Source: Raja brachyura (taxonomy: Eukaryota). Taken from it: DNA of 64,000 nucleotides. This document shows, piece by piece, positions 2,901 through 64,000 of this stretch. The notes below the pieces were generated by a model. It saw only the letters and a list, made by a program, of their open reading frames with translations, made no database searches and was not told where the DNA came from. Location: assembly GCA_963514005.1 (NCBI GenBank), contig OY740813.1:13950001-14014000 (forward strand), given 5' to 3'. The position numbers were made by a program, and so were the translations under genes. Positions within the stretch are counted from its first letter, which is position 1, and the number at the start of each line of letters is the position of its first letter.

Positions 2901-3949
2901 TGGAGGTATGGAGCTCGATACTGTGGCTGGCTGGTGACTCACTCCTTGTTTTGGCTATTACTGCAGCCTAAACGCCAGCGGTGTAATTACCATCATTACC
3001 AAAGCTGTAACTGGCAGCTTCCTGCGTGTCAGAATTACCTCTCTGGTAATTTCTCCCCCGACAGCTGTCACCCTCCCAGGGTGATTTGAGCTGAAATTGC
3101 TGCTTGCCGGTATGTGGGACGAAGGCTGCTATTTCAGGCCTTCACGATAGTTCTCCTCACAGCACTGTCAGCGAGAATTGTTTTAATTCTTATTTTAAAT
3201 CTATATTTTGTCCTTTGAAGGCTCTGACAATCCTGTTGTGATTTGACCTCGCGTTGAATAGAGATTGTATCAAAGCAACTGTGTTTCTGTCTCATTCTTT
3301 CCCCACTGCCCGAACCGTTGATGCACGTTCCATAAAATAGTACCTTCACAGTACCTGACAATAGCTTGTTAGAAGATCGTCAAACTGTCTTCAAAGTATT
3401 TCTTAAGTGCACACGCACAGAGCAGAGCCTGGTTTCCAGATTCATGTGGAGACATAGGGCCATACAGCATAAAAACAGAATCTTCGGCCCAACTTGTAAG
3501 AGATGCCCCATCTAAGCTGGTCCCATTTATTCCATGTCCCTCTGAACATTTCCTGAGGGAAGAGCCTGAGAATAAAGAGACTTCGAATGGAGATGAGATG
3601 GAATTTTTTTAACTTACAAGTTAATTCTTGGAACCATTTCCTTAGGCAGAGGGTGGTGAATCTGTGGGATTCATTGGCACAGATGGTGGCATTGGGTATT
3701 TTTAAGCATGTTAAATTGTTAGGTTAGCGTGTCAAAGGTTGAGGGGAGAAGGCAGGAGAATGGGGTTGAGAGGGAAAAATAAATCAGACCTGATCAAATG
3801 GTGGAATAGACTGAAGAAGGGTCAACGTCACCCATTCCTTCTCTCCAGAGGTGCTGCCTGTCCCAGCCGAGTTACTCCAGCATATCGGCAGAATAGTCGA
3901 CGGGTTGATTCGCCTAATTCTGCTCCTATGTCCTCTGGTCTTATCCCAC

Positions 3950-4390: not shown

Positions 4391-5060
4391 TCCTCTCCGA
4401 CCAAAGGGGAACCAAATTGAAGAACTAACTACCATGGTGTACCTAGTCCAGAGGGTTCAGTGTAGTGACTTACACAAATGGAAGTTATCTGTTATTATAG
4501 TGCATTTCACAATGCCCCTGTGTCTTCCAGCCTGTGCTCTCTTTATGACAGTGTGCGCAGGTAGTGTATGAGCACCTCCATCAAATTGGAAGATCGATTT
4601 TTTTTACTTTCTGGAGTTTTACTTCTTTTGTTACAAAAGGATTATTGATGTTTAAAAAAAAATTTTTTTTTAAGTATCAAGTGAATTAGGTGGTCAGGCC
4701 CTTAAACAGCTTAAGCAGCGTGTGGGACAAAATTGCCAGAGACACCAACAACGAGGAACAGTCAGGAGATTGTTTTTGACGACAAACTGGACAGAATGTG
4801 GAACCTTCGATCGCAGAAACTCAGTCGGGTCATTTTTTTGGAGTTGATTATTTTAATAATCTGTTTCATTTTTAACATGTGTCGATCTGATGCTTTTTAG
4901 TTATTAGTTAATTCAAGTAGAAGTTGATTTATCACAATATCAAGCCAGAAGAGGCGGGGTATACTGATGGGAAAAAATGTTGATAAATGCAGCTTAATGT
5001 TTAATATATGTGTACTGGCATTTTATTGGCAAAAAAAAAAAGAAGCACTGGTTACAGCCA

Positions 5061-5556
5061 AGATCGACAGAAAATGCTGGAGTAACTCAGCGGCACAGGC
5101 AGCATCCCTGGAGAGAAGGAATAGGTGATGTTTTGGGATGAAACCCTTCTACAGACTGAGAGTCGGTCGATGGGGGGGGGGGGGGGGGGGGGGGGGTGTA
5201 GGAGGGAAACTAGAGGTATGAAAAGGTTCAGAACAAATCAGAGCCGGCACCAATGACTAAGGCAAGGTGGAGCCCACAAAGGTCCATTGCTGAAGAGGTG
5301 ATAACGAAGGGATATATGGATGCGAACAGTGGACCTGGCAGGATGACTAGGGTGGGGGAGGGGCAGTGAGAGAGAGGGAACGCTGGGGTTCCTTCATACC
5401 TCTCGTTTCCCTGCTCCCTGGTTCTCGGTCTGAAGGAGGGTCTCGACCTGAAACATCTTCTATTCCTTTTCTCCAGAGATGCTGCCTGACCCGCTGAGTT
5501 ATTCCAGCATGTTGTGTCTATCTTCGGTGTAAATCAGCATCCGCAGTTCCTTCCTA
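5061..5556. mobile_element. Fold-back pair of PLE termini
   Basis: AATGCTGGAGTAACTCAGCGG...GGAGAGAAGGAATAGG (5072-5125) is inverted relative to TATTCCTTTTCTCCAGAGATGCTGCC...CCGCTGAGTTATTCCAGCAT (5461-5510). Confidence 0.8.
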
Positions 5557-5829
5557 CCCTGGTTACAGCCGCCTTTGTTGTACTGGGTGTGAGGTTGGAA
5601 ATCTGATAGCTGATGTATACACATCAGATGAACAACAATGTTTTGATGAGGTTGATTTTTGACGTCCAGCGACTGTAATTTTTTTAAGGAGGGTGACGTC
5701 ATTGTAGCATTTTGACGTAATTAAGATCCATCACGTGTTGAAATACATACAGGATGTCAGAGATTAAATAGCAGCGCTATGAATGGCCAGTGGTGTAACA
5801 AAGGGGGAGATGTGTTAAAGTCAATGCTG

Positions 5830-10254: not shown

Positions 10255-10372
10255 TGTTAAAGAAGGAACTGCAGATGCTGGAGAATCGAGGGTTACACAA
10301 AAAGCTGGAGAAACTCAGCGGGTGCAGCAGCATCTAAGGAGTGAAGGAGATAGGCGACGTTTCGGGCGTTTC
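10255..10372 (-). mobile_element. Short PLE-terminus insertion with 11-bp TSD
   Basis: GAGCGATGAAG is duplicated at 10244-10254 and 10373-10383. The insert is nearly identical to 62681-62791. Confidence 0.85.
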
Positions 10373-13159: not shown

Positions 13160-13726
13160 CAAAATTAACTGCAGATGCTGGTTTAAACCGAAGATAGACA
13201 CAAAAAGCTGGAGTAACTCAGCGGGACAGGCAGCGTCTCTGGAGAGAAGGAATGGGTGACGTTTTGGGTCGAGGCCCTTCTTCAGACTGGTTAGGGACAA
13301 GGGAAATGAGAGATATAGACGATGATGAAGGACTTTGCTGCCTTCCCCCACAGTGGGAACCATTGTGGGGGGATGTTTCTATGTTTATTGTTATATTCTT
13401 TAATGCTGTGTCTTATCTTTATTCGTGTGCTGCAATGGCAAGTCAAATTTCACTACACCATTTGGTGTATGTCCTTTGTATTGTATGTAGAGAGATAAAG
13501 AACAATGAATGACAGATATGCAAAAAAGTAACGATGATCAGAGAGCAGGAGGAATCACAGTGAGAGAGAGTGTTGGTGAACTCTCATCGGAGGGTGAAGG
13601 TGAACCTATTCAAAGTCGACATACCTTGAGGAGATTTCACAGTGGAGCGGACAAAATGTGTAGGAAGGAACTGCAGATGCTGGTTTAATCCGAAGACAGG
13701 CACAAAAAGCTGGAGTAACTCAGCGG
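13160..13726 (-). mobile_element. PLE partial-tandem termini
   Basis: Two same-orientation pLTR copies (13167-13290 and 13659-13726) separated by PLE 3' UTR-like and 5' leader-like sequence. Confidence 0.7.
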
Positions 13727-14454
13727 TGAGTCATCTGCCAGTGTTCTTCTGTGAGCAATTGCGGAGTTGGGGTGGTTAGTGTGTGGGGCTTTGGTGGGTT
13801 GCAATAATTAGAACGTGGAATGGCACAGCACGGCATTGGCCCATTATGTCTGTGTCAAACACCATGCCGAGTGAAACTAATCTCCTCTGCCTGCACGGGA
13901 TCCAATTCTCTGCATTCCCGGCTTATCCGTGTGTCTATCTGAAAGCCTCTTAAATCCCACTAACGTAGCTGCCTCCACCACCAACCCTGCCAGCACTTTC
14001 CAGGCACCCACCACCCTCTGTAAAAATATGCCCAACACATCTCTTTTGAACCTTTCCCCATCTCACTTTAAAATTAATGTCCTCTAGTCTTTGGCATTTC
14101 CTCCCTGGGAAAAAGGTTCTGATTGTCTATCCTATCTATGCCTCTCACAATTGTGCATGTATACAAGTACAAGCATATATGCTTCTATCAGGTCTGCCCC
14201 CAATCTCTGGCGATCCAGAGAAACCAATCTGGAATGGGAACATGACCCATCTATGACCCACGTTCCACCCCGAGCCCAGACCCAGGCAGGGAGCGGTGGG
14301 GTCCGCCAACTCCTCACCAGTGTGACCAACAGCAACAACTTCTGATGACGGACCACTCAGTGCTTTCACGTTTGTCAGACAGGATACGTTGGCACCTAAT
14401 CCATGCTCACCTCATTTGTTCCAACACAGAAACTACAATCCAATGTAATAAAGA

Positions 14455-14670
14455 TACTGATGCTGGTTTATACCAAACATAGTCTTGCATGTTTATACCA
14501 AAATGCTAGAGTAACTCAGCGGTTCAGGCAGCCACTCTGGAGAACATGGATAGGTGAACTTTCGGGTAGAGCCCTTCTTCAGACATCCCGACCCGAGACG
14601 TCATCTATCCATGTTCTCCAGAGATGCTGGCAGACTCGCTGAGTTACTCCAGCACTTTGGGTCTATCCAA
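14455..14670. mobile_element. Fold-back pair of PLE termini
   Basis: GAGTAACTCAGCGG...TCTGGAGAACATGGATAGGTGA is inverted with TCATCTATCCATGTTCTCCAGAGA...GCTGAGTTACTCCAGC. Confidence 0.8.
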
Positions 14671-16272: not shown

Positions 16273-16466
16273 TCCGAAGATGGACACAAAATGCTGGAGC
16301 AACAGCAGGACTCAACAGGCAGCATCTCTGAAGAGAAGGAATGGGTGACGCTTTTACATTCTAGCACCCATTCCTTCTCTCCAGAGATGCTGCCTGTCCT
16401 GCTGAATTACTCCAGCATTGTGTGCCTATCTTCGATTTCAACCAGCATCTGCGGTTCTTTCCTACG
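16273..16466. mobile_element. Fold-back pair of PLE termini
   Basis: AGAAGGAATGGGTG / CACCCATTCCTTCT inverted arms around 16335-16380. Confidence 0.8.
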
Positions 16467-17809: not shown

Positions 17810-18232
17810 GATCAAACCCTTCCTCGCCCGTATCCACCTATCACTTGTAGAAACAAAGAATTGCAGATGCTGTTTTAGAAAAAAAAGGACCAAAGTGCTG
17901 GTGTAACTCAGCGGGTCAGGGATAGGTGACATGGATAGGTGACATTTCAGGTCGGGAGTCTAAAGAAGGGTCCCGACCTGAAACATCACCAATCTATGCT
18001 CTCCGGAGAACCCGCTGAATTACTCCAGCACTTTGTGCCCACTTATCACTCACTCGGCTTCGACCCACCCCCATTCGCTCTTTTCCTGCATTCTCCCCCC
18101 TATTCCATCAGATTGAAGAAGGTTCCCAACACAATAACTCGTCTGTCCATTCCTTTCACAGATGCTGCCTGACCCACTGAGTTCCTCCAGCACTTTATGT
18201 TTTGCTCATGATTCCAGCATCTGCATTTCTTG
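17810..18232. mobile_element. Nested/inverted PLE termini
   Basis: ATAGGTGACATTTCAGGTCGGGA abuts GTCTAAAGAAGGGTCCCGACCTGAAACATCACC; a second pLTR lies at 18110-18232. Confidence 0.7.
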
Positions 18233-18244
18233 ACTCTATTTCTT

Positions 18245-19422: not shown

Positions 19423-19480
19423 TAAATAACTGTGTGCCAGTCAGTTTAATTTTGGTGGTGTGGGGGGCAAAATTGGAATC

Positions 19481-19822
19481 CATTCCAAGCGAGCGTATGG
19501 ACATTCCAAGGGAGCGTATGGACATTCCAAGGTAGTGTATGGACATTCCAAGCGAGCATATGGACATTCCAAGCAGGTGTATGGACATTCCAAGGGAGTG
19601 TATGGACATTCCAAGCGAGCGTATGGACATTCCAAGGGAGCGTATGGACATTCCAAAGGAGCGTATGGACATTCCAAGCGGGTGTATGGACATTCCAAGC
19701 AAGCGTATGGACATTCCAAGCAAGCGTATGGACATTCCAAGCAGGCGTATGGACATTTCAAGCGGGCGTATGGACATTCCAAGCGGGTGTATGGACATTC
19801 CAAGCGAGCGTATGGACATTCC
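19481..19822. repeat. 21-bp minisatellite, 16.3 copies
   Basis: Unit CATTCCAAG-N5-GTATGGA with no indels. Confidence 0.95.
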
Positions 19823-20284
19823 TTTTGACAGGTAACATTTAGTCAGGGAGAAGAGACATGGATTTATGAAGGGAAGGTGGTTTGAGGATAACAATGATTT
19901 GTGGAAATATCAAAGAAGGTTGATGAAAACCAGAGGCTGATGTCATCTATATGGATGTAGGCAAGGCTTTTGACAAGATTCCACATGGCAAAAAAGTTCC
20001 AAAGTCGGGGAAATCCGAGAGAGAGTGACAAACTGGATGAAAACTGATCAATGTCAATTTCTAACACACAATGGTATTTTGCACATTTTCATTCAAATCT
20101 AACATTTGTAAATAAGAGAAGTGCCCTTTATGGTATTCATCAGCGGCTGAAATTTGGCTAGAAAATGCGAACATCTTATTGGAAAGGAACCTAACCTGGT
20201 CTGGCTTAAAAATGTCTCCAGTCTCAGACCCATGAAGTGACCCATTGGTAACAACAACAGCAAGTTGTTTCATAAAGCCTTTTT

Positions 20285-23369: not shown

Positions 23370-24058
23370 CGATATAGGGTAAGAGGACTAGAATATTTCA
23401 AGAGAGCTTGTATACAAAAACAGGGATGTAATGCGATGGTCAGGCCGCATTTGGAATATTTGGGGCAATCTTGGGCCCTATATCTATGGAAGGTTGTGCT
23501 GGCTCTGGAGAGGGTCCAGAAGAGATTGACAGGAATGATCCCGAGCATGAGTGGGTTAGTACATGATGAGTGTTTGATAGCACTGCGCCTGCACTCGCTG
23601 GTGTTCAGAAGAATGAGGGGGTTATTCAAACAGTGAAAGTCTTGGATAGTGGATGTGGAGAGGATGTTTCCACTTGTGGGAGAGTCAAGGACCAGAGGTC
23701 ATAGCCTCTGAATTCAAAGACGTTCCTTTAAGAGGGCGATGAGGAGGAATTTATTAGTCAAAGGGTGGCGAATCTGTGAAATTCTTTGCCACAGAAGGCT
23801 GTGGAGGCCAAGTCAATGGATATTTTTAAGGCAGAGATATATAGATTCTTGATTAGTACGGGTGTCAGGGGTTACAGGGAGAAGGCAGGAGAATGGGGTT
23901 AGGAGGGAGAGATTGATCATCAGATCATGTGATAGGAGTAGAATTAGGCCATTAGGCCCATCAAGCCTAGTCCGCCATCCATCTCGCCTCCCTCTATGAT
24001 TGAATGACTTGATGGGCCGAACGGCCTAATTCAGCTCCTATCATTTATGACCTTATGA
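23370..24058 (+). mobile_element. CR1 3' fragment
   Basis: MVRPHLEY...ALERVQKRLTGMIP, and TTATGACCTTATGA tail. Confidence 0.85.
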
Positions 24059-24960
24059 CTGAAGGGCCTCTATCTCTGCTGTTTAACTCTATGGTTTTGA
24101 TAAAACGTGGTGACCTGCTGCATGCCATGCTCCTTGTGCTGGTGAATAACGCCGCCCACTGCCTCTGTCTCAACGGGAGCTGAACCTTCCTGGCGGGCGG
24201 GATGGAGGGAGGGAAACAAAGTGGGGGAAAGTTTTCACTACAAGTGAGGATTACATTATTAAAAATTGAACATATTCTGACTGGCTCCACCATGGCCACC
24301 ACCAAGACCCTGCAGAGAGTGATAGACACAACAATCCATTACACGTACCCATCCATCTCCCCACCACCAAAGGGATCTACAGGGGGTGGCTGACAATAGG
24401 CAATAGACAATAGGTGCAGGAGTAGGCCATTTGGCCCTTCGAGCCACCACCGCCATTCAATGTGATCATGGCTGAAAAAGGCAGCTGATATCATCAAAGA
24501 CCCACAGCTCCCTGGCCATATTTCGCAACTATCATCGGGAAGAAGGTACAGGAGCCTGAAAACTCTGACTTTCAAGAACACCTTCTTTTCCAGCAATCAT
24601 TAGGGTCTTGAACACTACACCACACTAACCTCAGTAACTCACATCTTCTGTGAACAGTTTCTTTGGTTGCCGTGGACTGTGGTTTTGCACGATTATGGTT
24701 ACCTAGTATTAGAGTGATAGAGTCACAGGGCCATACAGCACGGAAACAACCCCTTGGCCCAACTTGTCCACACCGACCAAGATGCCCCATCTGAGCTAGT
24801 GCCATTAGCCGCATTTGGTCCATATCCCTCTAAAACGTTCCCATCCGTGTCCCTGTCCAAATGTCTTTTTTTCTGGTACGAATGTATTGTACTATTGATT
24901 ATTGTATATTTTTTTCTGTGTGCTGTTGCATTTTTGGGCCTGTTAAACTGCAGCAAGTAA

Positions 24961-25291
24961 AAGCCCTGTCCCACGGTACGGGTTCATTCCAAGAGCTCTC
25001 CCGAGTTTGCCCTGAATCGAACTCGGAGATTTACGGTAATGGCCACTCGTCGGTACTCGGGGCTCTCGTGGACATTTTTCAACATGTTGAAAAATCTTCA
25101 CGAGTCTTCCCGTGCTTACCTGCCGTTAGCGAGCCTTCCCAAGTACCCGCCGTTAGCGTTACGAGCCGCTAAGAGACGTCCCCGAGCTCCGACGTACCCG
25201 CTACGTTCATTCTCCGTGCTTACCACGAGTTTGATTTTTTTTTAATCTCGGGAGAGCTCTTGGAATGAACTCGTACAGTGGGACAGGGCTT
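24961..25291. mobile_element. PIF/Harbinger-like MITE (331 bp)
   Basis: About 45-bp TIRs AAGCCCTGTCCCACGGTACGGGTTCATTCCAAGAGCTCTCCCGAG; TAA TSD at 24958-24960 and 25292-25294. Confidence 0.85.
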
Positions 25292-28952: not shown

Positions 28953-29240
28953 TTGTTTAAGAAGGGACAGCAGACGCAGGAAAATCGAAGGTAGACAAAA
29001 GTGCTAGAGAGACTCAGCGGGTGAGGCAGCATCTATGGAGTGAAGGAAATAGGCAACGTTTCGGGCCGAAACCCTTGGGTTTCGGCCCGAAACGTTGCCT
29101 ATTTCCTAAGCCCTCGCGTTTCGGCCCGAAACGGTGCCTATTTCCTAAGCCCTTGGGTTTCGGCCCGAAACGTTGCCAATTTCCTTCGCTCCATAGATGC
29201 TGCTGCACCCACTGAGTTTCTCCAGCACTCTTGTCTACCA
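28953..29240. repeat. PLE-terminus palindrome with a triplicated 40-bp unit
   Basis: Long inverted arms centred at GAAACCC-TT-GGGTTTC. GTTTCGGCCCGAAACG(T/G)TGCC(T/A)ATTTCCT is repeated three times. Confidence 0.9.
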
Positions 29241-31872: not shown

Positions 31873-32787
31873 AACCTCCGCATCAAGTTAACCTCGGCAT
31901 CAAATCAACCTCGGCATTGAATCGAACATGGCATAGGGAAATTCTGGAGAAACTCAGCGGGTGAGGCAGCATCTATGGAGCGAAGGAAATAGGCAATATT
32001 TCAAGTCGAGACCCTTCTTCAGAGGGAAAGGTAACAACGTTATCTTTTGGACAATGCTTCATGATGCACTGATGTGACGGTCTTGGCTCAAATCTACACT
32101 CAACTCCCATCGGGTTATTTTACCTTCTGAGGGAATTCTCCTCTACCATCATGTTGGTGATCTACATACCACTCAGGCTAACGCAGAGGTGATCGTGGAT
32201 GAATTATACTGGCGCCACTTCTCCATCATCCCCGCAGCACGATCCATGAACCCACCACCGTCTTGGTGTGAAAACCTGCCCCACGCATCTCTTGGTGATT
32301 TCTCTGACAAACGCTCACTTGCTGTAGGGCGTTGGGGTAGGAACATGTTTCTTGTTACTTGTGCTAATTGGGCGCTGCAGACTCAGTCCTGTTATCAGTC
32401 CCCCCCCCTCCAGCATTCCCACCTGTCCATTCATAAAACTGCAGCGGGAGAGCCAAGGTCAGGCAGGTGGATGTAGTGGAGCATGGCTCCAGTGACAAGT
32501 GCCCAGTGACAGCCATTGGAAGCAGCGATGAGGCGGTGGGATAAAATAACAGAATGCCAGGCAGCAACAGCAGGACTCGCTACCTGCGAGAGCAGACAAT
32601 GGAAGGAATTAGAGGAAGGAATGATTTGAGAGATAGGATTTCAGGAGGGGTGGGCTGACTGGGTGTAGGCTGTCCATGCACCACTTGATGAGCATGTCTG
32701 TGTGACTAAATACCTTCCAAGTACAAGTCAACCAATGTACCTCCTGTAACCAGGAACTTCATTGAGGAGCAAGTGTGCAACAAGCAA

Positions 32788-34047: not shown

Positions 34048-34854
34048 GTCTGAACATCAGTCAAACTAAAAACGCAACCCCAGTCTAATAGCAATCGAGG
34101 GTAATCAATCACCATCAGCCTAATCCCAGTCTATCTCCAGCTAAAGACAGTCCAGTACAAGTACAACGAAAACCTTATCCACGGAACACAAAGTGCTGAA
34201 GCATCTAAGTGGCTCTGGGGCACAAGGGGAGGCAATGTTTCGGGTCAGGACCCTTCTTCAGACTCTAAGGAACTGCAGATACTGTAAACTTGTGTAAACA
34301 CAAAGTGCCGGAGTAACTTAGCATGTCAGACAGCATCTGTGGAGGACATGGGTAGGCCATGTTGCAGGTCGGGACATGTTTTCAGTCCAACTTTAATTTA
34401 ATGCATAGGCAGTGTCACACCAGTCTAACCCAATCTAAGCCCAGTTTAAACGCCGGGAAGAAGTAAAGCCCTCCCCACTAGCACAGAGCCTGCACCAGCC
34501 CCAGGCATTTCCAGCACCCAGCGTGTTGTGGATGCCAGGATGATCAGAACATGCTTAACCAGTATTGTGCTACATGCCTCTTTGTCCCTCCACGCCCCAG
34601 ATGTCTCCTGCCTCTCCAGAACCCCAGGGGAGTACAAAGATTGGGGCGGCACAGTGTAACTGCTGCCTCACAGTGTCAGTGGCCCGAGTTCGATCCAGAC
34701 TCAGCTGCCGCCTGTGTGGAGTTTGAATGTTCTCCCTGCGAATGCGTGGGTTTTGTCTCCACAAATGCTGCCTGACCTTCTGTGTTCCTCCAATAAAACC
34801 CAAAATGCTGGAGAAACCCAGCGGGACAGGCAGTGTCTGTGGAAGGAACTCTTT

Positions 34855-37392: not shown

Positions 37393-40300
37393 CTGGTGCT
37401 GGACTATTTCTAGTGTCAGTGTAACACTCTGGATCATCCCTGTCACAGGCACTGTTCCAGCGGAGATGAAAGTTAAGTGACGCGGTTAACATCCTGTGCG
37501 AGTGGAAAGCCTTCCACGAGTGAGGGTGGGGATTGTTGTGTGGAGAGCTAATTGCACTATTTTGAAGGAAATATACATTAGTAGCACCCTGACTGAATGA
37601 TCGCGTCTATTCTCCTCCCACTAGCTCTCCAGAGGCATTGGTGTGCGCAAGGATCTTACTGGTAGAAATAGGTTTGTTCCTTCGGGGTTACGGAAGGTTA
37701 ACGAGAATAACTCAACTTCTCGTTATTGATGAATAATCTGCATGTAAATACTGACATTAGAATGGCACGGAATCAATCTGGAATTAAACAGTTTGCTCAC
37801 CATGGTGGTGAAAGCAAAGAAAAAGCTGCTATTTCCAATCTGCATGCCTCCGTGAGTGAAGTCGCCCAGGTACGCTGTGTCACATTCACCTTGCACTCTG
37901 CCGACTTACTCCGCACCTCACCACCACCTCTACTGACCCTCCACACCCCCAGGCTGGTCCTTACTGCTTACTGCTTACTTTCAATCTCCTAGCACTCAAA
38001 TCATTGGCTTTCCGTTGCCACCACATCATTGCCACACCTAAAATCAGCCTTTGATCACCTGCTCCTTATTCCCTCTCTCTCTTACCGCGGCTCCCTTGGT
38101 TCAGCCATTGACTCATAGAGTAATACAGCATGGAAACAGCACTTCGGCCCAAGTCGTCCATACTGACCAAGATGCCCCATCCAAGCTAGGGGAGTCTCCA
38201 ATGTGGGAACATTGTTACAAGATATGTAGGTGGTGAGTTATAACTGAGGTGCATAAGATCTGTTTCTCATAGAGGCTGATGAAACTCAGGAATTCCCTAC
38301 CCTAGAGGCTTGTGGAAGGTGGATCTATGGTGATATTACATGAGGAGGTGGATACATTTTTGATAGATCAGGGGATTGAGTGCTGTAGGGAGCTAGCACA
38401 GCAGAGGAGTTAAGGCTTGGGACAGATTAGCCACGATTGCATTGAGCGGCAGGACAGGCATGAGGAGCTGACTGGATAATTCATCTTCCATGAGCTTGTG
38501 TTCTCCATCAGAAGCTGTCATTTCAATGTCCTGCTGCTGCCTCCACCCACCCACCTAAGCAGTGCAAGGGAACCAAGAACTCATGGTCTTCTTTGTCACT
38601 GATATTCAGCTGCATCAACTGTCTCCCTCCCTTTCATCAGGCCAGACCCTCACTAAGATCTTTCCTCGCCTGTACTGTCCATGTCCTTGCACCGGACAGC
38701 AGTACTTCGCTTATCACCCCAGACTACGTCATTGACCTAATCTTGCCTATAAGGCTGACCTGCTGGTTCGTCCAAGTTACTGACACCTAACCACCTTTCC
38801 AGCTGCCCCCTCCCTGAACAGAAGCTGAAGTAAAAGTTCTCTCTCCTCAGACTTTTCCGTCTCCTACCTCCAGTCACCTTTTGTCTCCGAATCCCTCCCC
38901 TCGCCGTGAGGCTTCCCTTTTCTTTGTAAAGATCTTAACATTGCTGTCTACTTTCAATCCCTCCTTAAGGTGAGAGGGGCAAAGTTTAAAGGAGATGTAC
39001 AAGTTTGTTCACACAGAGGATGGTGGGTGCGCAGAACGTGGTGGAGGCAGATATGTTTGTGCCTCTGAGATATGGATCACATGCCGGGACAGGAGATTAG
39101 TTTAACTTGGCATTATGCTTGGCACAGACGTAGTGGGCCGAAGGGCCTGTCCCCATGCTGTTCTACATTCTATGTTCCCTCAATCTCATGTTTAGATCCA
39201 ACCAGCAGCAACATTAAGTTACTGCTGGTGCCATGGGATTAAATTGGCTTTCACAAGAGTTGTGCGTGAAATCCTGTGAGACTGGGGCTGTCCCTTCATT
39301 CATCTCCATCTTGACATGCCATCATCCTACAATACTTCTCTACTCTCAGATGGCTGTGGATACAGGTACATGCTCCTATTTCTTTGTATCTAGTTGCAGC
39401 CAATGTGTTAATGCTTATTGGAGCAAGATACCTTTGACACCAACACAAATACACTTTTATTGTTCACAGAATAAAATCATAGGGTTGACCTACCAACCCT
39501 AACACTAGCCCTAATCCTATGAATTAGTCAGGTATCCCCAGTGGCACCCCAGCTTCCACCATTGGTATCAGCTTAGATGTTAAGTGTCACCTTTCACTTC
39601 TTTACGGAGGAAACCCAAATTTCTGAGACAGCTCTTGCTTTTCAGGGCTAAGATCAAGACAAAAAGTAATTCGGCGGGTGCAAGCATCCATGGAGAACAT
39701 GGATAGGTGACATTTGAAAAAGGGTCCCGACCTGAAACGGTACCTATCCATGTTTTAAAGTTGTATGACAATGACATTTTTACTTGCTGCAACTTATCAG
39801 GCCTGTAAATGTAATTCACATGGATAATATATAATAACCAAAAAATCAGTACATTAATAACCCCAATACTAGTGCAAACCACCCCCCCCCCCCCCCCCAC
39901 CCCAAACCATGCAATCAAAGACATGGTCTATAGATGATCCTAGTTGTTGAGGTTAGTGATGTTCATGAGTCATAGTGTACAGTTGAAGAGACTAATGGTT
40001 GAGGGAAGAAGCTGTTTTTAAACCTGGTAGTCATGTTTTTCAGGTTCCTGTACCTTCTTTGCGAATGAGGGCATAGCAAGGCTGGTGAGGATCTTTGATG
40101 CTTTTTTCAGACAGCACCTATTGATCATTTCTATGGTGTCTGCCACACTCTGTAGTCTCATTTGTGCCTGGGCATTAACAAGAGAGAATTAAGTCTGGTG
40201 TGATGTCCTGAGGATCAGATCCCAGTGCCAGGAAATATCTAACAACTTCAAATCCAGGCAGCATCAAATTTTCCCAGCCACTCCTCCACAAGTCCACAAT

Positions 40301-41345: not shown

Positions 41346-41636
41346 TTTGTCACACAGCAAAAGTTTTCCACTGTACAGGGGTACATGTGACAATAAACTG
41401 AAACCTCACCTAAAGTTTCCCTTTCCCCTGAAATACTGATCCCTCCCCATTCCTGACAGTGAGAACATTGCTCGCCGTTTGGGCATTAAATGTGCTCAGG
41501 AATTCAACCAGAGCTGCAAGGATTGTCAGCTGGTAGACCAAAGTGCTGGAGAAACTCAGCGGGTGCAGCAGCATCCATGGAGCGAAGGAAATAGGCAACG
41601 TTTCGGGCCGAAACCCTTCTTCAAACTCAATTGGCA

Positions 41637-41877: not shown

Positions 41878-41999
41878 CCTCTGAGCCTCATTCCATTTAA
41901 AGTCAACTATGCAAACAGAGTTAGCAAAGCCGTCTGATTAAGGGACTCGTCCTTAACCCATCCTTTCCCACCAGAGATGCAGCATTTTGTGTCAAAGTG

Positions 42000-42470: not shown

Positions 42471-45400
42471 AACTGCAGCTTCACTCCTGAACAGATCGTG
42501 GATCTTTCCCTCCCCTCCACCCTCCCACCCAACAGACCTTCTCCCCCCACCCTCGCTTCCACTCCCCCACTTCTAGGTTGAAACTTGTGCAGTACATATC
42601 CTCACACCTCTTCTACAGCTTTTTCCCCCCGACCCAACGTAGAGTTTTAGACTACAAAATATATCTTGATTGTTACAGATGTCTTTATACCTCCAAAATA
42701 AAGTACTTGCGAGTATCTGCAGTTGCAAAAGCATGTACAACATGAGTTCAGCAAATTTTGCCTCGTATTACTTGAGATGAAAACCTTTTTCCATTTCAAT
42801 GAATGTTGTTCCACCTATGGCCAATTCCCAGTCTTTGTATTTGTGCATCCTGTGGTGTTGACAGTTTTGTACCATTCTCAATCTTGGAATCCCGATAGTA
42901 TATAGAATTCGTGCACTGTAAAGAGTTGTGCATTGATTAGAGGGTTATGAATCGTGTGTAGATACATGAGATTAGTTTATTTTGATGTGATATTTGGCAC
43001 AGACATTGTGGGCTAAAAGGCCCGTTCCCGTGCTGCACAGTTCTATGAATAAGTTATGGGAATAAAATTTAAAAGATGAAATTCAGAGTCCTATATAAGA
43101 GGTTAGATGAAGGCCACATGCGCACAATTGGTTTCTTTGAATCGTATGTTGCGATGCGGTTTTAAAAATTAAGATAGTTGAGAAGGTGATGAATAATATT
43201 TTATCTTGACATGTCATTTTCAAAGCTGGCAATTTGTGATGACCATTTCATTATTGTCACGTGTACAGAGATACAGTGAATTGCTTGTAGTATATGTTAT
43301 CCATCGAACCGCACTGTGTGTGAACAAAATAGATCTTATTCTGGGACAGCACGCAGAGTGGCCAAGTACTGGCGCCATTCTGCAGTTTCCAAGTCTCTAA
43401 AACGTCGGACTGGACTGAAGGAGATGTGCCTTACTATTTGGGTGCTGAATTATTTGTTTATTGGGCCATGTATGGTGGATATTCAGTTTTGAAACAAAGT
43501 TCTCATCAGAGTGCTTGAAATAATAGGAAAATTAAATCAGAAAACATCCAGTCAATTGTTGCCAAATTGTAGGAGCTAAATATCATGTTTGTTGTTGTTT
43601 TACAAGGGTATTAATTTTTCTACAAACCAGCTCCTTGTTTCTCAATTTCCCATGTTCCCTGAGTTCTCACATTTTAGCTCGCAAAAAAAATTGTTGAAAA
43701 CTTTAATGGGACCCTGTGAACTAATTTGGGTAACAGAATAATGCTACCATTGACAGTGTAGTGAGAAGAATAAGTAGCATGCCAGGGAGCTCTCACGTTG
43801 TCCAATCAATAGATATCACAATGTGAACGGAAACTGTGACCCAAGAAACTCCCAAAATCTTATGAGGAATCAGATTTGAAAACACAAATCAATATCTTTC
43901 AGGTAGACTCTCTTGCATCTCATGTCCTCGCCCCATATGCAACAGTGTATCAGTTATTCATTATGGATGTCACAAAAATCAATGTGCATTACATTAATGA
44001 CTAACATTTGGTTGGTTAAATGGAGACGCAAGAGACTGGAGTTGCTGGAATCTTGAGTAAAACACCAAGTGTTGGAGGAAGGAATGGACAGACGACATTT
44101 GGGGTTGGGACCCTAGTTCTGATTGATTCTGTATTCTTCATCAGTCTGAAGAAGGGCCCCGGTCTAAAATATATTTCCATCACCTCCACAGATGCTGCTT
44201 GACTCATTGAGTTCCTCCAGCAGTTTGTGTTTAGGTGCTTCATGTTTTGTGTATTTATTCGGGTACTGGGGATTGATTAGAAGGCTCTGACTTTATTTCA
44301 GATTGCTTGAATTTGATATTAGTTACAGTTAAAATTGGAAAGTTTTGAAAGCAAACATTGTGCAAAGAATTTGCAGTAAGATTTATTTTGGTACCTTTGA
44401 GCTCTCAATAGAGTTGAGATGTTTATTTTTATGTATGGAAACTTTTTTCAACTTGTGCACTCTCTCTTTTCTCTTGAAGACAGAAAATAATAAAATTGCT
44501 TCAAGACTTAATAGCTGAAAATTTATGGTGTGTCAAAATGCCATTTAACTTCTGCATTGCATTCACAAGAAATATCATCTTGTGCTATAAATGATCCATT
44601 CATCAACAACTGACTGCAGTGTAGATGCCATTTTCCTTTAGTTTATTGCCCCTGATCTTTAGGAAGTTGCCTGACAGTTGTTATGCATTGTTTTGCAGGT
44701 AATCTATTCGATTTTGAGCCTGTATTAAATGTATTTGCTACTCCAACATCTGGTTTTGATCTCTTATAGCAGATTATGGAGCAGAAAAGTCATCAGTCAC
44801 TGTAACAAATGAAATGTATACAAATTCCCAAGCTTTATTCCAATAGGAAACTTTTTTGTAGTAATTATGAACAATAATTGCCCAGAGCATCATTGACTTT
44901 TATTCACATTCATATTAGCCATTTTAGTTTATCTTGTACATATGTTGTATCGTTAGTCTTTACAAGTTGTTAAATTAGAGGATTATTTTGCTCCCGTTGG
45001 AGACAGTATTTTAAAGCATCCAATTTTCGCCAATGTTAGTGTTGTTTATTTCACTATTATATTCTAATGAGTATAAGAAAACTTGTACACATGACATTCG
45101 CATCAACAGATAGCTTGTATTAACTTTAAATTGCTCATATTATTTGTAATGGATGTACAATTACTTGCAATTTCCCTTTGTATTGTAAAATATGTTTAAG
45201 TAGACTCTGGACATTTTTTATAGGAAGACCTGTCCATAAAGTGTGGACCAATGGAAAGTTCTTGTTTTCCTGTATGCTCTACCATATGTATAATTTGCCT
45301 TTGCTGTGTGGGGTGAAATTCTGACGCTTCAAGCTGACGTGATACCAGGTACCAGCACAGCCAGGATTAACATAATTTTAAGTAATGCAGAAGTTGGAAA

Positions 45401-51430: not shown

Positions 51431-54400
51431 ATGTTTCCACATTGGAACATAGTAATTAAACAAATGAAGGAGGAAATTACTCCACTTCTATTTGTGTTGG
51501 CATCACACATTTTGTATATTGGCAATTAGGCTGCATTTAAATGTTTATTTTTCATTAACAACGTGTCAATAATTTATGTGTTCACACTATATTTGTGGCA
51601 AATTGTTACTGACAAGAAATTTTGCCTTCATACTCTTAATTGATCCAGATAACCTTTTTAATTTTTGGTTCTGAGATTAAAAATGAGCAAGTGACAAGTG
51701 AAACAGCCAGCTTCAGACCGAACCTGGCAGCCATCTGTAAATAGATTCACGAGGCATCTTTATTTCTGAATCGGATACTGAGAAAATTGCTGATTGGGGT
51801 TGATGTCAAACAGTGACATTTGGTCTAACGAGGTGCATGTTTTTGAAGCTTTACTCCAGGTTGCATGTTAACCCACTGAGAGATTTTTATTTTCCCTGGT
51901 GCTGATGTATGTTCCTCGTGCAGGGAAGGCTTTTTTGTCACACTTTGCTGATACTAAACCAACTGTAAACTTTTTGAAATGGAAATGAAATATCGAGACT
52001 GACGAGTACTGTAATTGAGGTAACTGGATGGATGCCCCACTGATATTCTTCAACTTCAAATCGTTTTGTACGAGGGGAAAGATGAGTTTATCAGCAGAGT
52101 ATTTAAGGTTGTGATGGAAGCTGCTGCACAAAGCTGAATATTGGAAGAATCAAATGTAATTTTTGAAGTGGAGGCCAGTTGGAACCCTGTGGATGTTTAA
52201 TGCAGGATAGAAAAAACTGTTATTTCCGATGATGTTTGTGGATGACTTGAAATTTCAATTCCTTTTAGTCTTCCTATCCCGCCTAGCCTTTTCTCATCTC
52301 TTTCAGCAATCGCTCTCTCTCAAAATATTGAAGCTAGAATAATGGAAAATCCAACAAAATGATGCAGGTGAGGGGATTGAGTGACAAGGGAGCAGTTGAA
52401 CTGAGGAGTAGAAAGGATGGCGGAACCAAGTTGCCAGGATTAATGTGTAGGAAAGAACTGCAGATGCCGGTTTAAATCAAAGTAGACACAAAATGCCGGA
52501 GTAACTGAGTAACAGGCAGCATCTTTGGAGAGAAGGGAATGGATGACGTTTTGGTCGAGACCAAGAAAAGTACTCCAGCATTTTGTGTCTTGCCAGGGTT
52601 GATGCCTCACTCGATAGTACTAACTTAACAATTCCCTCTGGTCTAAAACCTTTTAAATGTTTTCAATCGCACCACCAAATCCTGCTAGCTGAGTGGTTTC
52701 TTTGGCTACTATTTATAGATGCTATATAAATGCAAGTTATTGACTTGAATCCTGTCCTTATCTCTTTAGTCTTCCTCTGACTATCTTTGGGGAAAGTATC
52801 ATATATTAAAAGTAGTTTATTTCTTGCGTGCACTGGTCTAAGCATACTTCAGTTTTGGAACACCATATTTAAGAATTCCTGATCAAGGCTATGATATTTG
52901 AAAAATCTGATGAGAAATGTTACACTGTTCAAACTGTCTGAAAATACTTTTGATAAGTTACGATAAGAAATTGCAACTGATTTTAGTTTATGAATTTTTC
53001 TGTTGTGTGTTACATGTTTGGGGTTAGGGTTACAATCCAGGGTCAAGTCATATACAGAATCAAAAATATGTTTTCCCAATGACTGCTTCAATGTCAAAGG
53101 TCCTGTTATTGCATTGCTAATTCGGAATATTCTAATGGACTTCAATAATCCCCTGACAATCTTGAGCAAGAATGTGCTGGGCAAACGGGAGTTATAGCAC
53201 TGAAAATATATTTGCTGAAAACATTTTTTTGGTGCCTGATGGAGTAAAAGTAATGGGTTTACATATGTGCTGCACATGGTTGGGTGAAGAGAGAAATGTA
53301 TTTTCAGTGTGAGCTTGGTTTAGAGGGAATTATTGTGGCACTTTCACATTGAGGTTTAATGTATCCAAGTGTTCCTTGTTTAAAGTATGTTACCAATTCC
53401 CTCGTATTTAGTGCTCTTCCTGGCTGCTGTTTAAGATGTATTGTTTCAGATAAAATTGATAATTTGTAAAATAATAGGAGAGAAGGAAAAATGTAATGCT
53501 TGGGGATACTGCTGATAGGAGAAAGTGAAAAAGGTGAATGAAATATTTTCCTGCACTGTACCACATTGTGGGTTGTACCTTGGTTTCTCTCGCAGTAAGT
53601 TGTTGAATTTCTTCCATAAAATACCCAGTGTAGGACAAACGCTTACCGGTTCATGGGGAAGGTATAGACTAAAAGGAGAGTCCATTCTAAAACAGCCTGC
53701 CACTCGGGAGCTGGCTGTGAAGAATATGTAGAAAATCTCTCAGCAAGTTCTAGTCCCATCCGCTAAGGAGAACTCGAGTGAGAAATCTGTAGGAGAAAAT
53801 ATTTTTGTGTCCAAGGCTTAAAATATTTCTTGTCCTTGTAGTTCAAAAAATTGTTTTACAATGTACATAATCTCTCTTCTCCAAGTTCTCATTGACTAAA
53901 CTTCAATAGTGTGACATCCAATTAAGTGTTTGGATTTCATAGTTAATTCCTGTTGCACTTAATTTTATTTTGCAATGGGCCGATGTTCTTATTGTTCTCT
54001 GCTACCCAAGGCAGTATTTTTCTGATTCCTTCAGTCTGGTGAAAGATTACTTAAACACTGGTTAGCAATGTTTTGATCTGGTTGCTGATCCATTGCTGCT
54101 TTTGTTCATTTGCAGAGAATGGTATAATAAAGGCAGTTTATTCATGTCTCTGCCAACTGCAGGCATTTCCTGAATGAATTATTTAATCTGCTCTGTAACA
54201 TCAAGGTTCAGAAAATCTCCACCTGCCCTGTTGCTTTTTCTCCAACAACATCAGCATGGGCTGGCAGCAAAAATTATGTACAATTTCAACCTGCAGAAAT
54301 ATTTTGCTTGCATTGCATTGTGTATTGCCCAGTTTGGCGTACAGATAAACTTCAGCTTATATTTATATCAGTCACGTGCCTTGTAAGCTGATACATTAGT

Positions 54401-55369
54401 TACGTAGTTACTCACTGGGACATGTTCCTGTTTATTACTGCTGTCTTCAAGCGACGAGTCGGGCAGATAAATTTCTGTTTGGAGAAGTGAAGACCCAGTG
54501 AGAAATGTTCTTGAAATACAACTTAGTTGTCAGTTGATCATTCATTTATTGGTTGAAGGTTGCCTGATATTCTGGTGGTCATTCAGAGGTAGTGTATCAA
54601 GTGTCTGTCTAAGATAATGAAATGTTTACTGTTGTATCGCAAACTTGTATTTTACATGCAATATAATTACATTTTAGAATTACCTTGTTTTCAGTGCAAG
54701 ATTGAGTGTAATATTGCAAGCTAATGGTTGTTGATTGGTGTATATTGATAGCTTGTGTGTTGATAGTTTGTAGATAATTATTGACTCTAATATAGTTATT
54801 TTGCCAATATGTGACTTGACAAATGCAGATTGTATCCTTAAACTGTGGTCGGGTGCTAAAGTGTAGACTGGCACCTGCTGATATTTTGTTTGATTGCTGT
54901 ACCTGTTATGACTAGGGCATATGGTCTGAAGAAGGGTCTCGACCCAAAACGTCACCCATTCCTTCTCTCCAGATATATTGCCTGTCCCGCTGAGTTAGTC
55001 CAGCTTTTGGTGTCAATCTCAGGGCATATGGTGGGTTGTGAAAAAAATCTTGTTAATTCAAGCAGCCATTTCCATTTACTCCAAACTAACTTTAACGATT
55101 TGCCTTGGGATTATAGGTTCTGTCAAATAATTTCCCTAATAGTGTATAATTATCATAATTATATAATTAAATTATGTATTTCACCAAAACTGTGCATTAG
55201 AACAATGGAGAATATTTAAGGTACGTGTAGATCTGTACACTGTGTTAGTATTATAAATGGATAACAGTGTGAAAGAATAATAAATTATCACTTTGATCTT
55301 TTAGTATCAGTGACATGAGATGTATAAAACCGACTAAACTACAGTTTATTTCCCACCTTAATTTTTGTG

Positions 55370-60625: not shown

Positions 60626-60926
60626 ATGAGAGAAAGTTCATTGGCCAGGATAGGCAGGAGCATGGCAGGGAACGAGGAAGCGCTGTTGGATTGAATTGCA
60701 TTTATTTAAATGCGAGAGGCCTAACGGGTTGGTGGATAAACTCAAGGCACAGTTTGGTATGTACAACTGGAATGTCGTAGCTGTTATAGAAACCTGGCTA
60801 AGAGAAGGACGGTACCCTCAGCTTCATGTGTAGGAAACAACTGCAGATGCTGGTTTAAATCAAAGGTAGACACAACATGCTGGAGTAACTCAGCGGGACA
60901 GGCAGCATCTCTGGAAATAAGGAATG

Positions 60927-60960
60927 GGTGACGTTTCGGGTCGAGACCCTTCTTCAGACT
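60927..60960 (-). ncRNA. Minimal type I hammerhead ribozyme motif in a PLE terminus
   Basis: Minus strand AGU-CUGAAGA-A-GGGUC(UC)GACCC-GAAA-CGUC^ACC: conserved core, stem II, palindromic ACGU stem III and GUC cleavage triplet. Confidence 0.7.
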
Positions 60961-61001
60961 CTTTCAGACTTACTGAAGCGCCTTCAGAGCTTAATGTTCC
61001 A

Positions 61002-62962
61002 TTAATCATTCCCCAGCCCTGCATGGCCCGTTTTTAATCAGAACTGCCCTGGCAGACCCATTGTTTCTGCTTGTTCATCCTCTCTTCCCCCCACCCCCCC
61101 CCCCCCCCCCGGGTCAAATCCCTCCCTACCTATGTCCAAGCCACCTCACACGCTCTTCGTCTCTTCAATTACTTCTGTTTTTCAGGCCCCCGCTATCTCA
61201 TCTTTACTATGGATATTAAGCCACTCTACACCTCCAACCCGCACCGGGAATGGCTTAAAGCCCTCCGTTTCTTCCTCGACCCCAGAGCCAGCCAATTTCC
61301 GTCTACTAACACGCTCCTCCACCTTGCAGAGCTGGTCCTTACCCTTAACATATCCGTCAACTCCTCTCACTTTCTCCAAAGCCAAGGCACCCCAGCTACA
61401 CCTGCCTCTTTGTAGGGCACGTCGAACAATCACTGTTCCAGGCACACACTGTCCCTATTCCCAAACTCTGCCTCCGTGACATTGACGACTGCATCGGTGC
61501 TACCTCCTGCACCCATGCCGAAGTCACTGACTTCATCAACTTCACGACTAATTTCCATCCTGCACTAATTCATTTGGACCATCTACGACATTTCCCTACC
61601 GTTTCTAGATCTCACCGTCTCCATCACAGGACACAGACTATCGACTGAAATCTATTACAAACCCACTGACTTCCGCAGCTATCTTTCCCACCCTGCTTCC
61701 TGTAAAGACTCTATCCCCCTACTCCCAATTCCTCCGTCTACGCTGCATTTGTGCCCTGGATGAGGTGTTCCATACCAGGTCCTCGGAGATGTCATTCTTT
61801 AGGGAATGGAAGTTCCCCTCTTCCATTATACATGAGGCTGTCACTAAGGTCCCCTCGATATCCCGCAGCTCCGCTCTTGCTCTCTCTGCCCCCCCCACCC
61901 CCATTCGTAACAAAGACAGTCCCCCTTGTCCTCGCCTTCCACCTCATCAGCCGTCGCATATAGCACATAATCCTCTGACATTTTCGCCATCTCCAATTGG
62001 ATCGCTCTACTAACTACATCTTCCCATCTCCACCCCTTTCCGCAGAGACCGTTCTCTCCGCAACTCTCTGGTCAACTCGTCTCTTCCCACCCAAACCACT
62101 CCCTCCCCAGGTACTTTCCCCTGCAACCTCAGGAGATGCAACGCCTGTACCTCCCACTTCGACTCCATCCAAGGACCCAACAGTCTTTTCAGGTGAGGCA
62201 GAGGTTCACTTGCTCTTCCTCCAGCGTCATCTACTGCATCTGCTGTTCCAAGTGTAGACTCCTGTATATCGGTGAGACCAAGCGCAGACTCGTTAATCAT
62301 TTCGCTGAAGACCTCTGCTCAGTCTGCCTAAACCTACCCGATCTCCCGCTTGATCAATACTTTAATTCCCCCTCACATTCCCACACTGACCTTTCTGTCC
62401 TGGGCCTCTTCCATTATCAGAGTCAGGCCCAGTGCAAATTGGAGGAACAGCACCTCATATTTCCCTTGGGTAGCTTGCACCCCCGCGGTATGAACATTAG
62501 AAATGTAGAAAATAGGTGCAGGAGGAGGTCATTCGGCCCTTTGAGCCAGCACCACCATTCATTGCGATCATGGCTGATCGTCCCCAATCAATAACCCGTG
62601 ATTGACTTCTCTAGATTCATGTAGCCCGTGCTTTCCCTCTCTCCCCATCTCCTCCCCCTTCCCAGTTCCCTTACCAGATTGTTAAAGAAGGAACTGCAGA
62701 TGCTGGAGAATCGAGGGTTACACAAAAAGCTGGAGAAACTCAGCGGGTGCAGCAGCATCTAAGGAGCGAAGGAGATAGGCGACGTTTCGGGTCGAGACCC
62801 TTCTTCAGATTTACTGTCTCCGACTACATTTTATCTCTGTACCGCCCACTCCCCTGACATCAATCGGGCTGAAGAAGGGTCTCGATCCAAAACGTCACCC
62901 ATTCCTTCTCTCCAGGGATGCTGCCGGTCCCGCTGAATTACTCCAGCATTTTTTGTCTACCT
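61002..62962 (+). mobile_element. Penelope-like retroelement (RT plus GIY-YIG), 5'-truncated and degenerate
   Basis: LPTYVQATSHALRLF, IFTMDIKPLYTS, LAELVLTLN, IDDC, and FQVRQRFTCSSSSVIYCICCSKCRLLYIGETKRRL; 11-bp TSD TTAATGTTCCA at 60991-61001 and 62963-62973. Confidence 0.9.
62778..62811 (-). ncRNA. Minimal hammerhead core, second intact copy
   Basis: CUGAAGA-A-GGGUCUCGACCC-GAAACGUC^GCC. The 5' strand of stem I is replaced by flanking sequence. Confidence 0.55.
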
Positions 62963-64000
62963 TTAATGTTCCAGCATTCTGGTGCTTCATGAGAGATAGA
63001 GGTGGTGGGGGGGGGGGGGGGGGGGGGGGGGCGAAGAGCATGTGGTGTTGGTTTATTGATCAAGGAGATTGTCATTGCGGTAGTGCGAGATGACATTATT
63101 GATAGTTTGTCCGGTGGGGCTGAGAAATTTAAAAATAAAAGCGATGGTCACCCTGTTGGGAGTGTATGATAGGCTTCCAAATAGGCAACGGGAATTAGAA
63201 GAACAAATATACCAACCAGGAGATTACAAGCAGCTGCAAGATAACTAAAGGTTGTCATTGAGGTTTTTAACTTTCCCAATACAGACTGGAACTGCCATAG
63301 TGTTAAGGTCTTAGACGGGCGAAATTTGTCAGATGTGTTCAGGAAAGTTGCCTCTGGCAATATGTAGAGCGCCCTTCAAGGGGGCAGGACAAAGCTTGAT
63401 TTTCTCTTAGGATAGCTTAAACTATGCATGCAGGAACTGATCCCACAGATTCTGGCCAGTGTAAGAATGTAATCAACCAAGCAAGTGCTTTCACTAACCC
63501 CAGAAGAAAATAGGTCTGCTCAGATTAAAAATAATTAGCAGGTTCATTCTGACCAAAATGAAACTAAATCGTTTGGTTTCAACGTGTTTGACAGATATAT
63601 GGATAGAAAAGGTTTGGAAGGCCCTAGTGGTTACTGTCACTTATTGGTATTTGTGTTGGCAGTTAGTGACGCAATGAAATCTCTCAAACTGAAAACAAAT
63701 GTATGACCAGTCATGGCTGATATTGGTTGAAATCACAATGTGAAGGATGTGCCGAGAGGCTGGTTTGAATCGTCCTTGGCAACATATGAAACAACAACTT
63801 CTTTAATGTTGCAAATGCTCAGGGCCAAGATCAAAATAAAGAAATCAAGTGTTTATTTGCCACATGCATCGGATGTGAACAGGAACAATGAAATTCTTTC
63901 TTGCTGCAGCTTCACATTTTTAGATGCAACAACAATTTTACAATAAATTATCAGTGAAATAAACTGGACCATAGTGGAAAAACCAAAGTACATAGTAGTT

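Follow-up and report, generated by a model that had tools for sequence, protein, structure and literature searches.

The 5' ends of PLE termini (pLTRs) in the 64,000-nucleotide stretch of DNA analysed here (the window) are concentrated at the leading edge of the hammerhead motif that these termini carry and not at its predicted cut. Twelve of 35 pLTR arms end at positions 1-6, the 5' edge of the motif, which lies 26-31 nt upstream of the predicted cut, where only 0.5-0.8 ends are expected. It is likely that the hammerhead marks the breakpoints by its position and not by cutting. The copies are separate pLTR insertions, and we see about an even chance that their 5' ends coincide because the RNA begins at this edge and the RT runs off its template there.

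The pattern bears on how PLEs make inverted ends and on the role of the hammerhead. It argues that integrated copies derive from uncut RNA, in agreement with the available text of one in vitro study (PMC11167929), and where antisense self-priming has been published for the inverted ends, it offers a two-primer scheme based on the sense strand instead. Genome assemblies become a test, in that 5' ends, the extra G described below and the pairing of tailed with untailed arms can be followed over thousands of copies. If both a promoter in the pLTR and twin priming are true, genomic copies would show to the exact base where transcription and the two RT reactions start.

The element and its copies

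The window consists of repeat-rich animal DNA, including LINE RT and Tc1-type remnants. A profile built from 20 window copies of the pLTR gave 39 matches in the window and none in the reversed window. Two matches were dropped (1646-1674, E 0.05; 41932-41983, degenerate) and two repeat units at 29077-29149 were merged into their arm, leaving 35 pLTR arms with the minimal hammerhead, nine head-to-head insertions among them (Table 1). In the profile numbering used throughout, the A of TCAGT is position 1, C3 of the CTGAAGA core is position 4, stem II occupies 12-23 and the predicted cut falls between 31 and 32. The scope is this one 64-kb window with its old copies, whose 5' ends were curated by eye; a control repeat family (10 partial copies, ends uncurated) was left out of the analysis. 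The copies form three broad subfamily groups whose shared sequence begins only at TCAGT, and short copies prevail, with 35 arms against three ORF remnants. Prokaryotic genomes scanned for stray pLTR copies gave 6 matches, each confined to a 20-mer.

The first-pass annotation had taken these repeats for PLE termini with a hammerhead, and this identity is supported, the hammerhead being of the minimal kind. The 2.1-kb insertion at 60829-62983, in which one arm extends ~1.7 kb into the ORF, contains what is expected of an EN+ PLE: a single, decayed ORF with RT and C-terminal GIY-YIG, a pLTR with hammerhead motif after ORF and UTR, and, as in other copies, an inverted 5'-truncated pLTR, an optional 30-40-bp tail and a TSD. 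The ORF has many stops and frameshifts. Its GIY-YIG reaches a Pfam E of 0.0065, below the curated cut-off, and no RT domain is found by Pfam, the RT-like motifs lying in broken frames; tblastn against an RT/GIY-YIG relative gives E 1e-29 and 1e-11, and the protein search returned one relative, which has no family name. The Zn-finger-like CNLRRCNAC sits just before GIY-YIG, a position that characterizes Neptune and Nematis (PMC8557442) and does not separate these two clades. Directly after the inverted pLTR, 60961-60998 consists of short re-copied snippets, all from profile positions 1-10.

Table 1. PLE-derived features in the window, with profile positions and flanking repeats
Feature	Coordinates	Strand	Remarks
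Focal fold-back, left arm	14444..14584	-	pLTR 3' part, profile 2 to ~130, with tail
Decayed minimal hammerhead, focal left arm	14554..14584	-	C3 at 14582; cut-site equivalent between 14556 and 14555
Extra junction base	14585	.	matches neither arm
Focal fold-back, right arm	14586..14666	+	profile 15 to ~95, no tail
Candidate 6-bp TSD of focal fold-back	14438..14443, second copy 14665-14670	+	by itself without significance (null p 0.23)
Head-to-head insertion	5061..5558	.	junction ~-230 / -33, outside hammerhead, in 3' UTR; only right arm tailed; 12-bp TSD (5048-5059, 5559-5570)
Head-to-head insertion	16273..16465	.	16354/16365 joins 25 and 31-32, 10-nt spacer; 12/14 TSD; tail on right arm; sole end at predicted cut site
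Head-to-head insertion	17848..18038	.	junction between 17957 and 17958 joins 15 and 1-2; 11/12 TSD; tail on left arm; host is UTR of older copy (~17820-18235)
Head-to-head insertion	28953..29239	.	junction between 29076 and 29077 joins 10 and 12; 13-bp TSD; tail on left arm
Decayed head-to-head pair	39651..39755	.	39715-39716 joins 25 and 5; right arm broken at ~45; TSD not significant
Old head-to-head pair	44028..44233	.	44125/44133 joins ~-2 and -9; tail on left arm; TSD looked for, not found
Head-to-head insertion	52446..52590	.	ambiguous junction at 52562, 13 to either 7 or 74; left arm tailed; 13/15 TSD
Inverted pLTR of long insertion	60829..60960	-	profile 1-132; 8-bp TSD at 60821-60828 and 62984-62991
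Decayed 5'-truncated PLE ORF	60999..62500	+	RT-like remnant, Cys-rich linker CNLRRCNAC, C-terminal GIY-YIG
3' pLTR core of long insertion	62866..62983	+	UTR upstream at 62600-62865, interrupted
Decayed PLE ORF or UTR remnants without hammerhead	28515-28746 and 40927-41340
Solo	3809..3887	+	starts profile 4-6; in another repeat, empty paralogues fix site
Young solo	10255..10366	-	starts profile 21, plus 6-nt re-copy; 11-bp TSD
Solo	31939..32023	-	starts profile 3-4; 9/10 TSD, null p 0.09
Solo	41532..41629	-	starts profile 1, G before; no tail; edge of satellite array
Solo	54924..55019	+	starts profile 2-4; no tail; 12-bp TSD
Young solo	62681..62809	-	starts profile 3; 6-bp TSD, 4 bases common with element end; in UTR of long copy 60829-62983
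Head-to-tail pair	34184..34386	-	downstream unit starts profile 1, G before
Partial tandem	13166..13731	-	truncated pLTR, tail, ~95 nt post-tail, UTR, second hammerhead, tail

The motif fits the minimal type I hammerhead as defined from metazoan PLEs in the available text of PMC4209133, with the core boxes, the extra base 9/10.1, the G10.1-C11.1 pair and a palindromic (15.2-16.2), loopless helix III; it departs from that description in a helix I of only 2 bp, as in D. virilis, and a helix II of 5 bp. The G10.1 pair is kept in 18 of 18 copies, helix II is 88% paired, and overall pairing amounts to 82% against 10-42% in slid controls, while the covariation score was reached by 59 of 500 shuffles. 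An Rfam scan of the window returned no hammerhead family, only sub-threshold miRNA hairpin matches. One of them places mir-722 on a fold-back centre at 29047-29104 (44.7 bits, E 8e-6, gathering score 81); this probably is a generic hairpin sharing the AACGTT palindrome, and such fold-backs could be seeds for microRNA-like hairpins. An alternative cut at an AUC or CUC triplet upstream of position 1 was rejected on inspection because it leaves only 3 nt to the core and extended copies do not conserve the pairing of the stem. In extended copies, such as at 44141-44149, the boundary itself forms an interrupted palindrome of 9 bp, TCAG-T-CTGA, and in several pLTR copies position 2 is the end of a small hairpin.

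Positions of the 5' ends

The ends of the 35 arms differ in how well they are defined: 25 are fixed by a TSD, a known target or an abutting arm, six are given by homology loss only, and four arms run on upstream. Since the subfamilies diverge upstream, ends called by homology loss are misplaced, and in a simulation 60% of 453 truly longer copies were called at -2 to 6 by homology loss alone. Because of this false peak, only the 25 fixed ends of the 35 were relied on, and the six others were also treated as censored. Ten of the twelve ends at positions 1-6 are fixed, and the excess has p values of 2e-7 to 1e-5 under a 126-fold correction, the bins having been chosen after viewing the data; twelve ends against 0.6 expected correspond to a corrected p of about 3e-6, and the strictest reading leaves 9 ends against 0.5 expected. 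Even against the remaining hammerhead positions, 1-6 stand out (p at most 1e-4). For the whole of 1 to 34 there are 19-22 ends against 1.6-3.9 expected from the outside hazard (p 1e-5 to 5e-7, 35 arms), and the cut window 29-34 holds a single end, at 16365, against 1.0-1.4 expected. The stop rate per base, 0.003 at 35-70, 0.005 at 29-34 and 0.016 at 7-28, reaches 0.09-0.11 at 1-6, and is 0.022 at 0 to -10 and 0.003 further up.

The claim of the first-pass annotation that fold-back junctions cluster at the hammerhead thus stands for positions 1-34 as a whole, but the peak is at 1-6 and the cut site is not enriched. It had also been proposed that self-cleavage or the stem II hairpin defines the RNA 5' end or an RT pause site. 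A 3' cleavage product would lack positions 1-31, yet the sequence 5' of the cut is kept in 30 of the 31 arms that reach the ribozyme, so that their templates were uncut there, and self-cleavage as the origin of the RNA 5' end is not supported. The idea of a defined RNA 5' end as such survives. A pause at stem II is possible for some inner junctions (three ends at 21-25, five at 10-15) but cannot explain the peak at 1-6, which the RT reaches only after it has passed the stem.

Eight of nine non-paired copies end at 1-6 and nine of 13 fold-back arms at 7-34 (Fisher p 0.011); conversely, nine of the ten ends at 7-34 are on fold-back arms. This inward shift fits the extra trimming that end-to-end joining predicts. 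Nine arms extend past position 0; they speak against an RNA start at position 1, in that they need read-through or 3' pLTR templates.

As to ends that had been ascribed to solo copies, 60960 belongs to the inverted arm of the 2.1-kb insertion and 34262 to one half of a tandem pair. Post-tail sequence is known in the window only from the partial tandem, at 13540-13660 (minus strand), where it is joined directly to 3' UTR; in this context there is an ORF-less unit of ~365 nt, in the retrozyme size range. Head-to-tail repeats with complete consecutive hammerheads, as in non-LTR retrozymes, are not seen in the window, which has one decayed dimer and one partial tandem. Both 17848-18038 and 62681-62809 went into older copies of this very element, within the 3' UTR, which suggests a preference for the own pLTR, as is also suggested for PLEs in the available part of PMC11167929. 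At 34754-34848 two short pLTR pieces stand tail-to-tail in a SINE-like repeat, with a TSD that is not significant.

Head-to-head insertions

In the focal fold-back (14444-14666) the junction 14584-A-14586 joins profile position 2 to position 15. The left arm has an internal 12-nt duplication (14466-14477 and 14491-14502), and its hammerhead shows a 1-nt deletion in stem II and a mutated stem III motif; the right arm is without the CTGA core and keeps the cut-site triplet (between 14602 and 14603). Neither arm holds an intact hammerhead motif.

All fold-back junctions that the first-pass annotation had listed exist, and two counter-examples, 5061-5558 and 60829-62983, were missing from its list. 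Both arms end within -10 to 34 in seven of the nine insertions, and 13 of the 17 fold-back arms that end within -230 to 70 do so inside 1 to 34. Flanking direct repeats score at least 8 in 6 of 9 pairs as compared to 15 of 400 random site pairs. Partner arms belong to the same broad subfamily group in all nine pairs (three groups), a match for which same-age activity could be an alternative source. The nine junction pairs are all different, and even the closest two, 2/15 and 15/1, differ in which of their arms is tailed. Neither of the two patterns that had been set against the earlier proposal is found: breakpoints are not uniform along the pLTR, with their peak at 1-6, and no single fold-back master with a fixed junction exists in the window, given several subfamilies and nine different structures. 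At 29077-29190 a 39-nt segment is present three times; since it spans the junction, it was duplicated after the junction had formed.

Two priming events or snap-back synthesis

How do two arms of the same terminus come to stand head-to-head? The outer ends fall into two classes, ~86-102 and ~120-132, both of which also occur in TSD-flanked solos. All seven clean pairs combine one tailed with one untailed arm (p 0.008); two pairs are unclear, and if they are counted against the rule it holds in 7 of 9 (p 0.09). In seven of nine pairs the arms are not nested; one untailed arm has 200 extra bases and one arm reaches 1.7 kb into the ORF. Simple snap-back synthesis, as previously proposed, would need later deletions to yield non-nested pairs and is disfavoured; tail pairing and non-nesting fit two priming events better. 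Later central deletions could themselves be the source of scrambled inner junctions and of the nestedness observed. Partner arms are 5-32% diverged, in most pairs an arm resembles its best non-partner at least as closely as its partner, and no private mutations common to partner arms are informative except subfamily marks.

The description of these structures as MITE-like holds for the hairpin shape, and also for their being short, non-coding and TSD-flanked. It fails for the ends, since symmetric terminal inverted repeats and a fixed TSD are replaced by outer ends that differ by ~30-40 nt in 7 of 9 insertions and by TSDs of 8-15 bp. Nor is there any re-amplified hairpin unit within this one window, where 9 of 9 structures and their junctions are unique, and no transposase link was seen.

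Two-sided priming has a counterpart in the protein of the PLE PAc Poseidon, as described in the available text of PMC11167929. In vitro this protein, which is predicted to be dimeric, nicks both strands and extends both; synthesis begins at two neighbouring internal sites that bound the tail, and the RNA used is uncut, as would be the case here. Insertion had no need of cleavage, and no RNA-seq reads began at the cut. The ORF of PAc Poseidon has its beginning at stem II, and the RT starts lie 111-118 nt inside it; the element belongs to a different clade, and head-to-head products and 5' ends are not treated in that text (PMC11167929).

What sets position 1?

In the model that we favour, with about an even chance of being right, a pLTR promoter would start the RNA at the A of TCAGT; the hammerhead would be the first 32 nt of the transcript and would remain mostly uncut. 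An RT-endonuclease, probably as a dimer, would nick both target strands and prime at two internal sites, which lie 95 and 130 nt from the RNA start. A single cDNA that runs off and is attached by microhomology would become a 95-130-bp solo starting at 1-6, and two opposite-strand cDNAs would meet 5'-to-5', be trimmed and joined. Joining of run-off cDNAs would, as we propose, place the junction within ~30 nt of the RNA end, i.e. inside the hammerhead. If priming occurred at the 3' pLTR of a long RNA, the arm would continue into UTR or ORF and give the classic inverted-pLTR structure, as at 60829-62983.

Several observations bear on the RNA start. Position -1 is a pyrimidine in 9 of 9 extended copies (62867 after allowing a short insertion), and a pyrimidine before TCAGT would fit the initiator consensus YYANWYY, which is weak evidence if taken alone: the pattern has a frequency of 1.1% per site, or of 6.7% if only the three bases free of ribozyme constraint are considered. 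A G precedes position 1 in three of four informative ends as compared to a C in all but one extended copy (p 0.037), and according to the available text of PMC9341517 the copying of a cap can leave such a G that has no template. In D. virilis Penelope an internal promoter starts 2 nt before the TSS (available text of PMC2377424), but the TSS lies ~120 nt upstream of the hammerhead with an intron in between (PMC2377424, PMC4209133), which counts against a start at the hammerhead edge; in Chlamys-3 the start lies in the pLTR and an intron crosses the pLTR boundary. The common TCAGT edge, the excess of G, the snippets from positions 1-10 and the starts in D. virilis and Chlamys-3 together favour a TSS at position 1.

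For core promoters a DPE consensus is known as well. We tentatively put forward a more detailed version, which is possible but has a clearly smaller chance than a start at position 1 with run-off as such: the hammerhead DNA would be the core promoter, with TCAGT as initiator and GTCA at +29 to +32 as a DPE-like element. The RT, as a dimer, would prime twice, once per tail end. Short solos and hairpins would then be strong-stop-like run-off cDNAs, and an inverted pLTR with a one-sided tail would reflect twin priming at the 5' and 3' start-site copies, without an antisense template.

TCAGT can also be read as a splice acceptor CAG, which is the chief alternative to a TSS. That the boundary is a 3' splice site, with copies made from spliced or intermediate RNA so that homology stops at position 3, appears unlikely to us. 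A pyrimidine tract, CAG and TCTG are in place, extended copies are C-rich with CAG directly before position 3, and a strong donor-like site lies 32 nt past the tail (between 13625 and 13624, minus strand). Exons usually end in AG, with which AG at 1-2 agrees. The D. virilis intron, moreover, ends at the same place, the 5' end of helix I (PMC4209133, available text). Against splicing, the copies have no common upstream exon, TSD-bounded solos carry only 0-2 extra bases where RT should cross the exon junction, and position -2 is A in seven of nine extended copies, which makes a poor acceptor tract.

A similarly low probability is given to RNA or cDNA structure, with a hairpin 2-14/38-52 or stem II stopping the RT and small inverted repeats guiding joining or snap-back. 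In three of seven single-copy folds (13180, 54924, 62830) the GAAGAAGG stretch is paired with CCUUCU, down to position 2-3 in two of these, and a fourth fold shows part of this pairing; the eight ends on stem II or just 3' of it point the same way, as does junction 1-2/15, which recurs in two insertions that differ in which arm is tailed. However, fold z-scores are only -2.1 to +0.5, the alignment fold keeps just three stem II pairs, and consensus folding gives no conserved alternative hairpin. If snap-back went through the hairpin, a 3/52 junction would be expected, which none of the nine insertions has, and seven of nine pairs are not nested. Also, RT stalls in front of a stem rather than after reading through it.

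Repair of palindromes by breakage at the centre involves hairpin nicking and deletion. If long palindromes had formed first and lost their centres later in this way, asymmetric junctions, 0-10-nt spacers and the one junction-spanning triplication in these old copies would be explained, but the solo peak at 1-6 and the tip near position 1 would not, and two young solos that are 99% identical (10255-10366 and 62681-62791) already differ at their 5' ends (21 versus 3). As the primary cause this order of events is improbable; central loss can occur on top of run-off.

Less probable still are short SINE- or retrozyme-like masters that begin at position 1 and are amplified with a fixed 5' end. The dominance of short copies speaks for them, as does the existence of PLE-derived non-autonomous retrozymes (available text of bioRxiv 2026.07.22.740005). 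Only one two-unit tandem is present, however, and the same edge is found in all three subfamily groups, whose upstream sequences are unrelated; each master would need the same start, which leads back to a promoter or processing site.

Self-cleavage of the hammerhead is refuted here as the main cause of the RNA 5' end and has a minimal residual chance, as a single arm begins at 31-32 (16365-16366), no more than expected, nearly all arms keep the 5' side of the cut, minimal PLE hammerheads cut poorly in the available account of PMC4209133, and cutting was dispensable in vitro.

Relation to known systems

In L1 twin priming two primers on one staggered cut lead to an inversion; there the arms come from two different RNA segments, whereas here both arms represent the same terminal segment. 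LTR strong-stop DNA arises when RT runs off the capped 5' end after a short distance; here, in contrast, there is no tRNA primer, integrase or true LTR. 

Closest are PLEs themselves. In Pen2a of Adineta vaga (PMC3846280) and in the scheme of PMC8557442, both taken from the available text, a 5'-truncated inverted pLTR stands head-to-head with the element, as in the window, and 8-10-bp TSDs, a 30-40-bp tail at one end, junction palindromes and insertion into PLE copies are likewise shared; the window differs in having mostly ORF-less pairs or solos with 90-130 bp per arm. Self-priming on an antisense template was proposed there, and the available text of these two papers does not map 5' ends to the hammerhead (PMC3846280, PMC8557442). 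For Schistosoma, opposite-strand hammerhead pairs 100-700 bp apart were noted (available text of PMC4209133), and the processing-site role proposed in the same text has left no trace in the ends of the copies studied here. Inverted pLTRs, TSDs, one-sided tails, junction palindromes, PLE hammerheads and PLE-derived retrozymes are thus already described. In a literature search that covered few subscription papers, and for which figures and supplements (e.g. Fig. S2 of PMC11167929) may have a bearing, no paper was found that maps 5' ends to the hammerhead edge or invokes twin priming for PLEs.

Other repeats in the window

A head-to-head inverted pair of a non-PLE repeat, with 36-nt arms of 89% identity, lies at 23930-24043. 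What looks like a true MITE occupies 24960-25292; its terminal inverted repeats are 49 nt long (94%), and a 20-nt palindrome lies at its centre (25065-25104). A Tc1/mariner-type transposase remnant is found at 35988-36722 (Pfam HTH_Tnp_Tc3_2, DDE_3), and a LINE RT frame of 455 aa at 30005-31372, with an ALKBH8_N match at its end and a 3' part that recurs at 57529-58182 (89%). Minisatellite arrays with 21-nt and ~31-nt units are located at 19430-19842 and 41630-41900, respectively, the second being abutted by a PLE solo.
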